64,000 bases of DNA, from contig SCRI01000083.1 in NCBI GenBank assembly GCA_004298675.1, forward strand, positions 16,037 to 80,036, in the 5' to 3' direction. Shown here piece by piece: positions 28,119 through 32,299 of the stretch. Numbering within the stretch: the stretch's first letter is position 1; each line of letters starts with the position of its first letter. The DNA comes from a bacterium (lineage in GTDB: Bacteria > Vulcanimicrobiota > Vulcanimicrobiia > Vulcanimicrobiales > SCRA01). A model generated the notes under the pieces. The model saw only the letters and a program-made list of their open reading frames with translations, made no database searches and had not been told where the DNA came from. A program made the translations under genes and the position numbers.

Positions 28119-28316
28119 TCAAGGCTTCGCCTGCTCTCGATGCTTAGCTGCTCGCCGAGCGGCCACGTGCCGGTCGACGGAGATCGTGCCACCGCGTGAG
28201 CTGAGGATCACGTCGGCACCGGCAGCGCGCAGCCGCACCGAGGCCTGCGGCGAGAGGTGCGGTGGCCAGAAACCAGCGCTCGAGGAGTAACCGGTTCCAT
28301 AGCAGTCCGCGTGGGC
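28119..28316 (-). pseudogene. Degenerate fragment homologous to the comEC 3' end
   Basis: There is no start codon. The translation AHADCYGTGYSSSAGFWPPHLSPQASVRLRAAGADVILSSRGGTISVD... aligns to the intact ComEC tail GHHGSSYSSSAPF...LARVRAAGAQIFLTSRDGTITVD (30152-30388). In my hand alignment 14 of 21 residues are identical in the core block and 6 of 7 in YSSSAxF, with an internal deletion of about 18 residues. Confidence 0.6.
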
Positions 28317-28664
28317 TCTGGGAAGCTTGTCCTTTTTGATTATGCATGTGCGAACAGAGATGCTGTGATTATCACTGGTGATAAACGCTGCATTGTGGCC
28401 CTGGCGGGGAGTTCAAAAGCTGCGGGTATCGTTAAGACGCTTCAGGGTCGAGTTGTGCATGTGGAGTGCGTAATCGAGGCCATGAACGGCCTCTGCGGAT
28501 GGAAGAATGTCCGGGCTAAGCTGTGTTCCGATCCGTCCGCAGATCCGCGCTTGTTCGCCGTGGTGGACTCGAGGCACGACGAGAAGATGGTCCCCCAAAA
28601 TTTGTCTAACAGAGTTCAGACTCTCATCGCGGATTCGGCCAGCTTAGTGATGTTCGAACCTTAA
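28257..28664 (+). pseudogene. Truncated ORF (possible C-terminal remnant of a PIN-like/nuclease-type protein)
   Basis: The only start is a GTG lying antisense inside the comEC remnant. The AT-rich part begins around 28330 with LFDYACANRDAVIITGDKRCIVAL, resembling the last acidic motif of PIN-type domains. No plausible N-terminus is present. Confidence 0.25.
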
Positions 28665-28825
28665 GCAGTTACCGCTGCGTTGAGATTTTCCAATGCTACC
28701 TGCTCGACCTGAAACGCGAGACTTGCGTACCTTTTCTCAATAGCGGAAGGTTGTACGGCGCCATCACGTCCTCTAGCATCCGCTTCTTCGCGACGAGCTT
28801 GGCGATATCGATCTATGTGTCTCGC

Positions 28826-29803
28826 CTAGTCCGGTTCGGAGATTCCGCGGTAGGGCTTGAACGGGTTCCGTTCGCCTACCGCAGCATTCGCTTTGTCAAC
28901 GATCCATTGTGTCAACGTGTGGTTGGTCGCCATGACTTTGTACAGTTCCTCGGTCGTGCCGAGTACGATGATTCTGTGTGTAAGTGCCAAACCGACCTCC
29001 ACTATTGCAGCTTCAGTGAAGCCTGGATTGGCAATAAAGAGGCCGCGGCCATCGCCACGCGTCAGAACTCCCATCACGTGTTGGGCGACGTCCTTCGGGC
29101 CAAGGAGATTCTTCCACCACTTCGCCTCAACCACATAAATCTGCCCTTTCACTTCGATCACGCCATCGACTTGCTCGACCGTTCGATTGTTGCGGTTTCC
29201 CGTAATGCGAAAAGATTCGCGTACCAGGATTTCCTCGAAGTTGCACCAGTCATTCAGGAGGACTTCGAACGTTTTTCCGCGTTCATATTCATCCTGCATC
29301 GTGAATAACTTGTAGAGCCGACTCTTGATGTCTTCGCGCTTACTCGCCCTTTGCTTCTCTCTCTCTAGCTCCGCATTCTGTCGCGCGAGCCGTTGAGACC
29401 GCTCGGCGTCGCGCTCCTGTTGCATGCGCGTAAACGCGTCCTTTTCGTCGATGAGTTCCCGGGCTTTCGCGACCGCGCCCTTGGCCGCCAGCCTCTTATC
29501 CTGGTAGATGGAGTCGAAATTGTTAAAGTCTACGATCCCTTTGAGGACCTCTCTACGGACCTTAAGTCCGTGGTTGCCCGACATTTCATTGACGACCTTC
29601 AGGAGCGTGTGCGCCATCTCGATCTTTCGCAACGACGCCCGGTCCGTTCTGATTTGCCGCTCATATTCGGCCAACCTCGGGTGTTCTAGCCCGGCGCCAC
29701 GAAAGAATGTGACCACGTCGCGCTTCGAGTTGCGGATCAGCGCAATCGCCTCTACGACCGCCGTAAAGACATCTGGCCGGAACTGGTAGGCCTCCATAGG
29801 CAT
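28826..29803 (-). CDS. Mrr/type-IV-restriction-endonuclease-like nuclease with coiled-coil and an unplaced N-terminal domain
   Basis: The C-terminal GKTFEVLLNDW...EQVDGVIEVKGQIYVVEAKWW fits the D...(E/Q)xK REase core. A central charged coiled coil (ERDAERSQRLARQNAELEREKQRASKRED) precedes it, and the N-terminal ~120 aa were not recognised. Confidence 0.7.
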   Translation of the reverse strand: MPMEAYQFRPDVFTAVVEAIALIRNSKRDVVTFFRGAGLEHPRLAEYERQIRTDRASLRKIEMAHTLLKVVNEMSGNHGLKVRREVLKGIVDFNNFDSIYQDKRLAAKGAVAKARELIDEKDAFTRMQQERDAERSQRLARQNAELEREKQRASKREDIKSRLYKLFTMQDEYERGKTFEVLLNDWCNFEEILVRESFRITGNRNNRTVEQVDGVIEVKGQIYVVEAKWWKNLLGPKDVAQHVMGVLTRGDGRGLFIANPGFTEAAIVEVGLALTHRIIVLGTTEELYKVMATNHTLTQWIVDKANAAVGERNPFKPYRGISEPD

Positions 29804-30151
29804 GGAGGCTGATTCGGAAACCGTCTCGGTCGCCCTTTCGCTATACTACGCCCGGGGGTACGTGCCGCGCCAGAGAGTTTCCTTACCCGCTGACTAATGG
29901 TCGCACTACATGAGATATTAACTACGCGGTTTCCGGTGCAATAATCTGGTCAACGCCGGGGAGTAGGACGCGCGGATCGTCGTAATCAGCAAGCGCCGCC
30001 TTCGGCGAGATACAGTTGATGATGAGGGATGGCCTCTCGTCGCGGAGACGCGATGCTGCGGCGAAGACCGGGCGAAGTGGACCTTGCCTTTGTCGCGTTT
30101 CTTGTTGGCGTTGATTCGAGACGCATGCGTCCCACCTGCCCGGTAACTGTG

Positions 30152-32299
30152 CTATCGGGGAACATCCCTGCTCCCCGTGCTTTCCGAGCATCCGTGCTCC
30201 ATATCGACGGTGATCGTACCGTCCCGGGAGGTGAGGAAGATCTGGGCGCCGGCGGCGCGTACCCGCGCCAGGGCGGCGGGCGCCGGCAGGCCGTAGGCGT
30301 TGTGGAGGCCGACGGAAGCGATGGCGATACGCGGGCGCACAGCGTCCAGGAACGGTGCGCTGGAGGAGTAGCTGCTGCCGTGGTGGCCAAGCACTAGCAC
30401 GTCGGCGCGCAACTCCGCTGCCGGATAGGCCTCGACGAGCGCGCGTTCCTCCTCGCTCTCCGCATCGCCCATGACGAGTGCGGTGCAGTCGCCGGCGCGC
30501 ACGCGCACCACGATGGAGTCGTTGTCGACGTCGTCGTGGGTGCCGCGCAGTGGCTGTGAAAACGGTGCGAGGATCGTGATTTCGGCGTTGCCGCTGCGCC
30601 ACGTTGCGCCGGCGCGCAGATGCGCCACCGGTGCGCGGGCAACCTCCGCGTCGCGCAGCAGCGCGCCGAAGGCACCGCGTGCCGGCCAGCCGCCGTCGAT
30701 TAGGCGATCGGCGCGCAGCGTCTGCATGACCGCGGCAAAGCCCGCGAAGTGATCCTGATGCGGGTGTGATATCACCAGCGCGTCAACGTGGTGGATCCCC
30801 GCGCGCACGAGCAACGGCACCAACGTGCGCGGGCCCTGCGGCGCGGGTGCGCCGTCGACCAGGGTGGCGTGGCCTTCCGAAAGCACGGCGATGGCCTGCC
30901 CCTGACCTACGTCCAGCGCGACGATGCGTGTCGTGCCTGCGCCGGGACGAGGCGGCCACAGGCAGAGCGCGGCTGCCGCCAACATGCAGTACAGCGCGCA
31001 GCGCGTGCGGCGCAGGCCCAGCCACAGCGCTGCCGCGTCGTACGCGGCGATGGACCACCACGGCGGCGGCGTCGCCACCAGATGCGCGTACGGAAGCAAG
31101 GAGATCACACGCACCACGCCCAGGATCCAACCGCACGCCAGCGCCGCCAGCGGCGCAAAGAACGGCTGCGCCATGGTCAGCATGCCGAAGCCCAGCGCCG
31201 GTGCGACCATCGGTACCACCAGAGCGTTAGCCAGCGGCGCGTAGGGTGCGAGTTGCAGGAAGAAGATCGCCTGCAGCGGCCACACCCCGATTTGCGTGGC
31301 CAGCGTCAACGCGATCCCTTCGCGCAACAGGTGCGGTAGAGACAGGCGTTCGAGTGCGTGCGCGATGGGTGCCGCAAAGAGCGCGATCGCGCAGACGCAC
31401 GAAAACGAGAGCAGAAACGATGCGCCGCCGACGCTCCACGGCTGCCAGAGCGTCACGACGATCGCGGCCAGTGCAATCGCCTCTGGTCCCAGTGCGGCAC
31501 GCCCGCTTGCGCGCGCCAGCAGCGCGCAGGCGGCCATGATGCCCGCGCGCAGCGCCGGCAGATGCGCGCCGGAGAAGGCTACGAAGGCCGCGACGCCTAG
31601 CAGCGCGAGCAGCGCCGCGGCGATGCGCCCGGCTCCCAGCGCTTCGCAGATCAACAGCAGCATCGCTGCGAAGGCGCCCAGATGGAGGCCCGCGGTGACC
31701 AGCACGTGCGTGGTTCCGGTTTCGGAGAAGGCAGACGCCACCTCGTTGTCCAATGCACCGCGCTCGCCGATGAGGGCGCCGTCGAGCAGTGCCGCCGCGG
31801 GCGCGGGCAGCGCTGCCAAGCGCTCGCGTCCCCACACACGCACGCGTGCGACGGTAGCCGTGAGGCCGTACCCGGGTTCCCGCCGCACGATGCGTCCGTT
31901 TAGCTGTGCCGTCACACCGCGTGCGCGCAGCTGCGGCAAGCGCCGCAGGCGTCCGCGTATGGTGACGAGCGTCCCTGCTTGCACGCTGCCGTGGGCGCGC
32001 ACGTCCAGCGTGCCGAAGCTGGTGCGCGCCAGCGCGAACGGAGCATCGTCGCGCTCGGGCGGTTCGACGACGATGCCGCGCACCGTCACGAGTCCAGTCG
32101 GCAAGACGCGCGCCGCCGGGTCGCGCCAAGCGGAATCGGCGCAGGCACCCACCAGGGCAACCGCCAGCGCGAAGAGAATCGTTCGCCGCCCGCGGCAGGC
32201 GGCGCCCACGAGGACGGCGGCGCAGCCCAACGCCCATGGCGGCGTCATCTGCGAGCCCGCGATGCACGCGGCGGCCAGAGCGGGGAACCAGAGACGCAC
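30152..32299 (-). CDS. comEC: DNA internalization competence protein ComEC/Rec2 (with metallo-beta-lactamase domain)
   Basis: A polytopic competence domain is followed by the MBL motif VISHPHQDHFAG and ...VLGHHGSSYSSS. The start is uncertain (GTG 32299, TTG 32332 or an internal ATG). The rest of the track ORF overlaps the divergent epimerase. Confidence 0.88.
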   Translation of the reverse strand: MRLWFPALAAACIAGSQMTPPWALGCAAVLVGAACRGRRTILFALAVALVGACADSAWRDPAARVLPTGLVTVRGIVVEPPERDDAPFALARTSFGTLDVRAHGSVQAGTLVTIRGRLRRLPQLRARGVTAQLNGRIVRREPGYGLTATVARVRVWGRERLAALPAPAAALLDGALIGERGALDNEVASAFSETGTTHVLVTAGLHLGAFAAMLLLICEALGAGRIAAALLALLGVAAFVAFSGAHLPALRAGIMAACALLARASGRAALGPEAIALAAIVVTLWQPWSVGGASFLLSFSCVCAIALFAAPIAHALERLSLPHLLREGIALTLATQIGVWPLQAIFFLQLAPYAPLANALVVPMVAPALGFGMLTMAQPFFAPLAALACGWILGVVRVISLLPYAHLVATPPPWWSIAAYDAAALWLGLRRTRCALYCMLAAAALCLWPPRPGAGTTRIVALDVGQGQAIAVLSEGHATLVDGAPAPQGPRTLVPLLVRAGIHHVDALVISHPHQDHFAGFAAVMQTLRADRLIDGGWPARGAFGALLRDAEVARAPVAHLRAGATWRSGNAEITILAPFSQPLRGTHDDVDNDSIVVRVRAGDCTALVMGDAESEEERALVEAYPAAELRADVLVLGHHGSSYSSSAPFLDAVRPRIAIASVGLHNAYGLPAPAALARVRAAGAQIFLTSRDGTITVDMEHGCSESTGSRDVPR

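Follow-up and report, generated by a model that had tools for sequence, protein, structure and literature searches.

A damaged second copy of the comEC 3′ end brackets low-GC DNA in a variable comEC–lysR interval of an Eremiobacterota genome

Homology-facilitated illegitimate recombination (HFIR), which takes place during natural transformation or conjugation, was defined from laboratory crosses (PMC3240628). Hotspots of variable gene content between core genes, some of them without identifiable mobilization, have also been described, examples being hotspot #37 of Escherichia coli and the core defense hotspots of Pseudomonas aeruginosa (PMC10121019). Here we analyze a locus with features of both in a 64,000-nucleotide stretch of contig SCRI01000083.1, referred to below as the window, from an uncultured bacterium of the phylum Eremiobacterota/WPS-2. 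In the window an intact comEC gene is followed by about 1.8 kb of low-GC DNA and then by a damaged second copy of the comEC 3′ end, the fragment comEC′ (28119–28300, minus strand). Our preferred reading, to which we give a probability of roughly 0.55, is that this arrangement is the old scar of a recombination-mediated insertion that was anchored in comEC, had an illegitimate distal joint and took place in a variable slot devoid of an integrase. The argument draws on homology, lesions, substitution pattern, synteny polymorphism and the absence of a recombinase, tRNA gene or att core; the recombination route and the age are deduced from these. The locus was compared with four related comEC lineages, represented by seven contigs from metagenome-assembled genomes (MAGs) and metagenomes; contigs are denoted by L numbers where they have to be told apart.

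Translation of the minus strand of 28346–28080 gave ...AHADCYGTGYSSSAGFWPPHLSPQASVRLRAAGADVILSSRGGTISVDRHVAARRAAKHREQAKP*, with no usable start codon and a stop at 28119–28121. The original prediction, made from the letters of the window, had placed a match to the end of ComEC without a start codon on the minus strand of 28316–28119, and both the translation and the alignment scores bore this out. The best protein local alignment of the fragment fell on the last ~70 residues of the comEC open reading frame (ORF) at 30152–32587; against this full 811-codon ORF the fragment scored 87 (BLOSUM62), compared to 32.9 ± 4.9 for 1000 shuffles. At the nucleotide level it scored 37 against the comEC end of the window, compared to 11.7 ± 1.5 for dinucleotide shuffles (z = 16.5), so that both scores lay far above the shuffled controls, and the same kind of dinucleotide-preserving nucleotide comparison with the comEC end of L001 yielded z = 15.4. 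BLASTN aligned the fragment with the resident comEC end at 74% identity over 77 nt, and with L001 at 74% over 81 nt plus 81% over 37 nt. Residue counts made earlier by hand, 14 of 21 identical in the R.RAAGA...GTI.VD block and 6 of 7 in YSSSA.F, were upheld. When 80 ComEC C-termini from genomes and metagenomes were compared with the fragment, the highest scores were obtained with L001 (106), the window itself (87), L005 (81) and L006 (65), and all 76 distant ComECs scored 50 or less. As top scores were reached only with the ComECs of this clade, the fragment derives from comEC, as had been predicted, and specifically from a gene of the clade, rather than from another gene of the metallo-β-lactamase (MBL) fold or from chance similarity.

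In a multiple alignment comEC′ carries two lesions, a 1-nt gap and a 50-nt deletion, which together amount to 17 codons and are separated by an out-of-frame stretch of 17 nt. The deletion of about 18 residues noted earlier is therefore real, although it is made up of these two separate lesions and is slightly shorter. Read in the direction of the gene, the fragment consists of a first block (28274–28300), the out-of-frame stretch (28257–28273), the site of the 50-nt deletion adjoining 28256, a second block (28174–28253), a tail (28122–28173) and the stop codon. A complete ORF of this gene would encode Competence and MBL domains; here about 65 codons are left, the start codon is absent and deletions are present, and a Pfam/NCBIfam scan of the fragment returned no match. 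Private substitutions were distributed over the three codon positions as 3:5:3 in the fragment and 6:1:6 in the live copy, and those of the fragment look neutral, as in a decaying sequence. The 1-nt and 50-nt deletions and the neutral-looking substitutions indicate that the fragment is a pseudogene. From these sequence comparisons, which cover similarity, lesions and substitution pattern, we regard it as confirmed that comEC′ is a damaged, 5′-truncated copy of the last ~65 codons of comEC, a pseudogene remnant and not a gene.

The live gene was identified as a mechanically called ORF at 30152–32587 on the minus strand, with Pfam matches to Competence (E = 1.6e-42) and Lactamase_B (E = 5.9e-10); by comparison with the 712-aa ortholog of L096, its true start probably lies about 100 codons further downstream. 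The window ComEC is 76% identical to that of L001 in amino acid sequence. At the nucleotide level comEC is 0.77 and 0.76 identical to L001 and L096, respectively, with no break at the 3′ end, and the live tail and that of L001 are orthologous (z = 3.4). This uniform identity and the orthology of the tails argue for vertical descent, although the end may instead have come from a closely related donor; overall, the live comEC end looks native.

A single continuous local alignment (z = 13.8) joined 30420–30000 with 28340–27980. From the ...GTI(T/S)VD block it runs on across the variable tails of the two copies and about 30 nt beyond both stop codons, as far as ...GGAC.CATG at 30124 and 28085. The tail and post-stop parts taken by themselves gave z = 3.4 (19 of 2000 shuffles), suggesting that the repeat probably runs ~30 nt past both stops. 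The post-stop part alone was not significant (z = 0.5), and neither was the fragment tail compared in isolation with the intact tails (z ~ 1), its similarity reaching significance only when the full alignment was continued into it. In keeping with the first of these values, a possible relic of a DUF900 gene start after copy 1 (AATCAACG at 30104–30116) is not claimed. Copy 1 of the repeat (30124–30388, minus strand) thus comprises the last 79 codons of live comEC, the stop codon and ~28 nt of downstream leader; comEC′ is the coding part of copy 2, which ends in a 35-nt leader (leader A, 28085–28118, minus strand) directly upstream of the DUF900 gene start. The repeated unit is probably the last 65–79 codons of comEC together with the leader that precedes DUF900. 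It is ~230–265 nt long, 74% identical between the copies and devoid of a conserved identical core. The two copies lie in direct orientation on either side of 1.8 kb of foreign, low-GC DNA, as expected from the earlier statement that a second comEC 3′ end brackets an AT-rich insert of this size. That earlier reading had missed that the repeat extends past the stop codon, that DUF900 is cargo as well and that the event is probably old. A search for short exact direct repeats at the junctions, which had been suggested as a check, gave none and reported only diverged homologous blocks at 78% identity; self-comparison of the whole window by tblastx produced only noise.

The distal end of the 1.8-kb insert is formed by a second truncated gene. 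The truncated ORF that had been seen in the insert was confirmed and can now be described as a 5′-truncated, convergent PIN-like pseudogene on the plus strand (28308–28664). Residues 18–132 of the ORF match residues ~90–207 of 200–215-aa proteins (best match P0177, E = 3.8e-26), so that the remnant represents the C-terminal 55% of an uncharacterized ~210-aa family and has lost ~94 N-terminal codons; tblastn detected these 94 codons nowhere in the window. The PIN-like homology begins at 28308–28311 by tblastn and the nucleotide homology of comEC′ ends at ~28300, leaving 6–7 nt (28301–28307) that could be assigned to neither side. As two 5′-truncated genes meet head to head within ~7 nt, the distal joint between the PIN-like pseudogene and comEC′, judged by these homology limits, is illegitimate rather than the terminus of a mobile element. 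The PIN-like family comprises 81 cluster representatives (P0177–P0257). Of six homologs scanned with Pfam, none reached the family cut-off, and the sole match was a weak one to PIN_3 for P0181 (E = 0.077).

The original prediction had also seen no integrase, att repeat or tRNA, and our domain, repeat and tRNA scans agreed. The ORFs of 27040–30151 contained no recombinase domain (DUF900, the PIN-like fragment and Mrr_cat were the only assignments), and no tRNA gene was found anywhere in the window. The GC content is ~0.70 in the backbone and 0.49–0.60 across 27040–30150, with the exception of comEC′ at 0.68. This low-GC tract also spans the DUF900 gene (27094–28083), which places comEC′ inside a 3.1-kb composite island. 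A 320-nt spacer (29804–30123, GC 0.58–0.60) lies between copy 1 and the main cargo gene, which encodes an Mrr-type nuclease (28826–29803, minus strand). The origin of the spacer is unassigned; it has no Rfam match and is not shared with loci that carry Mrr homologs, whose nucleotide homology to the window sets in just 13 nt before the Mrr start codon. Kinship of 29804–30151 with the intergenic regions of relatives or with the leaders was considered, and the similarity was not significant.

The interval downstream of comEC differs among relatives. In the comEC nucleotide identity tree L001 and L096 pair at 82.5%, the window joins them at ~77%, and L005 and L006 stand at ~70%. In L006/L007 comEC abuts lysR. 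In L096/L097 it is followed by 255 nt of intergenic DNA with relics and then by lysR and AlkZ, and in L001 by one ArsR/HTH_20-type regulator on the opposite strand and then by lysR. In L005 lysR and AlkZ are absent and the next conserved gene is ArgZ-like. Including the window, five different states of the comEC–lysR/ArgZ interval were therefore observed, and relatives free of the insert (L006/L007 and L096/L097) have comEC followed by lysR, which was one of two arrangements foreseen, and not by the gene at 27094–28083. The corresponding slots of L001, L096 and L006 contained no recombinase, nor did the syntenic flanks of L096. A remnant of the ArsR-like gene was looked for in the window and none was found. 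In L001 this gene lies between two copies of GTAACC..GAGCAGGCG.C.CCC (L001:12421–12443 and 13302–13325; 20 of 24 positions identical, p ~ 0.03), one at the comEC stop codon and the other in the homolog of the comEC′ tail. On this comparative evidence the comEC–lysR interval of the Eremiobacterota lineage is a slot with variable cargo and no integrase.

On its distal side the slot is flanked by a conserved gene for a LysR-family regulator (26110–27015, minus strand; Pfam HTH_1 and LysR_substrate), with orthologs in L001 (69% identity), L096 (66%) and L006 (54%); an AlkZ-like gene (24942–26159) was recognized next to it by domain scan. Between lysR and comEC′ lies the DUF900 α/β-hydrolase gene (27094–28083, minus strand; Pfam DUF900, E = 1.7e-5; GC 0.53–0.65), which is separated from lysR by leader B (27016–27093, minus strand, 78 nt), a paralog of leader A plus the comEC′ tail. 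In L001 a mini-ORF, MSHYLTIPIVLFEIA* (13363–13410), lies directly upstream of lysR, with its stop codon overlapping the lysR start (TAATG). It corresponds to the first 9 codons of the window DUF900 gene and probably also to its last 6, and a weaker version of the relic is present in L096 (9960–10000). DUF900 has thus been deleted in two relatives; the L001 relic reads as an almost clean in-frame deletion that left the leader and the start codon in place and may have preserved translational coupling to lysR. The presence of this relic upstream of lysR indicates that DUF900 was already in the slot before the window and L001 lineages split.

Leader A matches the L001 leader upstream of the DUF900 relic at 43 of 54 nt (E = 2e-7; z = 6.6). 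The single leader of L096 is similar to leader B (z = 11.2) and to leader A (z = 7.0), and the L001 leader to leader B (z = 3.9). Within the window, the comEC′ tail plus leader A (28160–28084) aligned with leader B (27093–27016) over 70 nt (z = 4.2, 6 of 2000 shuffles), so that DUF900 is flanked by leaders A and B as direct repeats; downstream of the stop of live comEC there is a third copy, which is weaker (30124–30151). A pattern search of the 64-kb window found leader B once and the motif nowhere else, and the motif was not found alongside DUF900 or Mrr homologs in other genomes. As it occurs only locally and does not travel with these homologs, the leader copies are best seen as a by-product of how the insertions arose rather than as a mobile recombination site.

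Over 107 alignable nt the fragment differs from the live end of the window at 32 positions, from L001 at 26 and from L096 at 28, and the live end of the window differs from both L001 and L096 at 29. The fragment is thus about equidistant from three functional orthologs (26–32 of 107 nt), shows none of the window-specific derived states and does not group clearly with either side. In L001 a homolog of the fragment tail plus leader is present between the ArsR-type gene and the DUF900 relic (z = 5.8, 0 of 2000 shuffles). Traces of the comEC′ core in the intergenic DNA of relatives are collinear and marginal (L001:13134–13262, p ~ 0.07; L096:9746–9900, p ~ 0.05); they may be further-decayed remnants of comEC′, and at these values we do not claim them as such. 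The duplication probably dates from about the time at which the window and L001/L096 lineages separated, in which case the intervening DNA would since have been exchanged or lost.

The simplest process that accounts for a direct repeat, a native-looking live end, a damaged copy, an illegitimate joint, the lack of a recombinase and a variable slot is recombination that used comEC as an arm. DNA would have been recombined in downstream of comEC with the gene serving as the homologous arm, and the distal joint would have been made illegitimately inside the comEC 3′ end of the recipient, upstream of the point at which the homology ends. The event could have been of the HFIR type; a single cross-over with a circular molecule that bore a segment of the comEC end would be equivalent. 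Either route would duplicate the sequence that extends from the distal joint to where the homology ends. The orphaned copy, functionless under this reading, would then have decayed neutrally, and a later deletion or illegitimate event may have produced the present joint between the PIN-like pseudogene and comEC′. The sides of the insert have the asymmetry that HFIR predicts, the proximal one lying inside or just after comEC and the distal one joining unrelated truncated sequences at 28301–28307.

Several points weigh against this account. The dating is weak, with only 107 nt alignable and a neutral divergence of ~10% with a wide error. The post-stop extension of the repeat has a p value of only ~0.01. 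The L001 homolog of the tail could have been conserved as a regulatory leader of DUF900/lysR and need not be a remnant of comEC′. Neither a donor allele nor a closer relative, above 85% identity, was found, so that the route and the direction of transfer are putative. Finally, direct repeats of a gene 3′ end around foreign DNA are equally what an integrase would produce.

This last point leads to the best of the alternatives, a decayed integrative element, which we consider unlikely. An island with an integrase would have inserted site-specifically into the comEC 3′ end and brought a replacement end with it, comEC′ would be the displaced attR, and a later deletion would have taken away the integrase and att core together with the terminus of the element and half of the PIN-like gene on its 5′ side. 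Repeated 3′ ends of a target gene around low-GC DNA are the classical signature of such elements, comEC′ has preserved clade-ancestral residues (SPQA, RLR) now gone from the live copy, as a displaced original end might, the distal junction demonstrably involved a deletion, and Mrr-type cargo typically travels on islands. However, no recombinase is present here or in the slot of L001, L096 or L006, the live comEC end shows no break in identity and has a tail orthologous to that of L001, the repeat is long and has no identical core, the distal junction is that of a truncated gene, and both DUF900 and the ArsR gene of L001 have similar flanking repeats without an integrase. The original prediction had offered an integrated element and recombination with comEC-linked DNA as its two explanations; the classic element receives no specific support from these findings, and recombination fits them better.

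Local duplication, less probable again, would have copied the comEC end and leader in tandem or by a slipped-strand event, with the foreign genes inserted later and separately. Such a history would explain the three paralogous leaders in direct order (after comEC, before DUF900 and before lysR) as well as the equal distance of comEC′ from all orthologs, as expected of an old in situ duplicate. It nevertheless requires an additional, independent insertion exactly between the copies. The joint between the PIN-like pseudogene and comEC′ shows that one breakage event united foreign DNA and fragment, and no relative has the duplication without cargo.

We find it doubtful, more so than local duplication, that the fragment or its tail and leader were retained for a function, either as promoter or 5′ untranslated region of DUF900–lysR or as a site of an unrecognized cassette-capture system. 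The tail and leader are conserved between the window and L001 (the z = 5.8 alignment above), including the boxes GGCACGTG.CCG and GAGCAGGCG, leader copies occur at every cassette boundary, and the branch leading to the fragment does not exceed the live branch in length. Against this, the coding core has frameshifting deletions and changes of neutral pattern, the leader motif has the local distribution described above, Rfam gave no match in 26000–33000, and a promoter/terminator scan revealed nothing relevant and no promoter-like excess. In the capture version, also a long shot, the slot may be a recombinase-independent capture site in which every captured unit receives a new copy of the comEC tail and leader at its boundary. 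The three copies in the window and the paired copies around the ArsR-type gene of L001 would then mark captured units, a reading we rate just as low, and capture might conceivably be repeat-templated, for example by HFIR through natural transformation anchored in a competence gene. If true, this would mean regular acquisition of nuclease and regulator genes without mobile-element machinery. An assembly artifact that concatenated two strain alleles of the comEC locus is very improbable, even though the window comes from a MAG (proteins identical to its DUF900, Mrr and LysR products are on record for a single NCBI MAG contig of 98,436 nt) and strain mixtures can produce false joins, as the copy is only 74% identical with 1-nt and 50-nt deletions and so is no co-occurring functional allele, the PIN-like gene and comEC share no repeat that could mislead an assembler, and the independent assembly of L001 has a homologous tail and leader at the same place.

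The main cargo gene of the comEC-anchored insertion that we favor is intact and encodes 325 aa; its earlier description as Mrr-like was confirmed by a match to Pfam Mrr_cat (E = 7.8e-8), a PD-(D/E)XK nuclease domain. The protein has 56 full-length homologs, distributed patchily across several phyla in hosts that include Enterobacter, Burkholderia, Alkanindiges, Pseudonocardiaceae and Reyranella. The nearest two, 76% and 69% identical, occur in defense-island-like neighborhoods with toxin-antitoxin, ubiquitin-like (Multi_ubiq/ThiF/BubE), DUF4238, DUF5677 and IS21 genes. A mobile unit shared around the nuclease gene was considered and rejected, as conservation with L091–L095 at the DNA level is limited to the ORF itself. 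The AlphaFold2 model (pLDDT 89.5) consists of a helical N-terminal domain (residues 10–91), a single 68-residue helix (101–168) and the PD-(D/E)XK domain. Its best fold matches in the Protein Data Bank were MspJI, EcoT38I and AspBHI. The N-terminal helical domain and the 68-residue helix had no match, and neither an SRA-like nor a winged-helix DNA-reader domain was recognized in the model. PADLOC returned no hit for the Mrr-like, DUF900 or PIN-like sequences. The Mrr_cat domain, the MspJI/AspBHI-like fold and the defense-like neighborhoods of homologs are no more than suggestive of defense cargo, and it is plausible that the protein is restriction-like and possibly defensive.

DUF900 has 572 homologs, 56–70% identical among the best 120 listed and many of them in Eremiobacterota MAGs; the closest homologs of the window gene are annotated as Eremiobacterota, which assigns the organism to this phylum. 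In each of the five lineages examined the neighborhoods of the homologs are unrelated. The idea that comEC′ is a usual companion of DUF900 was rejected, as six contexts from five lineages (L085–L090, L098–L101) contained no comEC, lysR or fragment-like DNA. DUF900 itself is thus, by its genomic contexts, roaming cargo, and it is the older occupant of the slot. In L098 (1–5984) a DUF900 homolog (67% identical) lies directly downstream of a gene for a 1639-aa helicase/AAA/nSTAND-type protein, a context which hints that the family may travel with defense-like genes. Elsewhere in the window there is a second small low-GC islet (34400–36200, GC 0.54–0.58), with a DUF3800 ORF (34537–35367) and a 150-aa ORF without a Pfam match (35721–36173). 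It sits between HutD/169-aa genes and a gene for an AidB-like acyl-CoA dehydrogenase, and genes of this kind are absent from the equivalent place in L096.

For annotation, we recommend labeling the fragment a comEC pseudogene remnant and 27040–30151 a composite, horizontally acquired islet that contains DUF900, a PIN-like pseudogene and an Mrr-type nuclease gene. The locus opens no new biological question. Its value is that of a small, well-delimited case of cargo turnover at an integrase-less slot in an uncultured phylum, with joints that can still be read; a comparison of many strain alleles could show how such a slot gains genes without mobile-element enzymes.

How the locus compares with known systems can be stated for each of them. 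With genomic islands and integrative elements that insert at gene 3′ ends it shares a partial direct repeat around deviant DNA, an intact target gene and an insert that varies among relatives. It differs from them in the absence of an integrase or excisionase, in a ~230–265-nt repeat whose copies are 74% identical and share no identical core, in a live end that looks like a product of vertical descent and not like part of an element, and in a distal end made of a truncated cargo gene instead of an element terminus. Integron-like and dif-module arrays are a poor match, as the slot has no intI- or Xer-like gene and the leader motif is local only. Like Mrr and other type IV modification-dependent restriction endonucleases, the cargo nuclease has a C-terminal Mrr_cat PD-(D/E)XK domain and folds that match MspJI, EcoT38I and AspBHI; unlike them, it has an unmatched N-terminal helical domain and a 68-residue helix and no recognized DNA-reader domain. 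Events of the HFIR type (PMC3240628) likewise have conserved homologous sequence, here comEC, on one side and an abrupt joint of unrelated truncated sequences on the other, and need no mobility genes; the present event differs in being old, in having been followed by later deletions, and in that neither donor nor recipient allele was recovered for this uncultured organism. The hotspots described in PMC10121019 also have constant flanks (here comEC and lysR/AlkZ/ArgZ), lineage-specific cargo that includes a restriction-type nuclease, and no identifiable mobilization, whereas the slot analyzed here spans 0–3 kb, holds one plausibly defensive gene without a PADLOC hit and is known from four related lineages rather than from a pan-genome. 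Set beside these systems, the feature is an ordinary scar of the kind found at integrase-poor variable hotspots, and a new instance of it in an under-sampled phylum.

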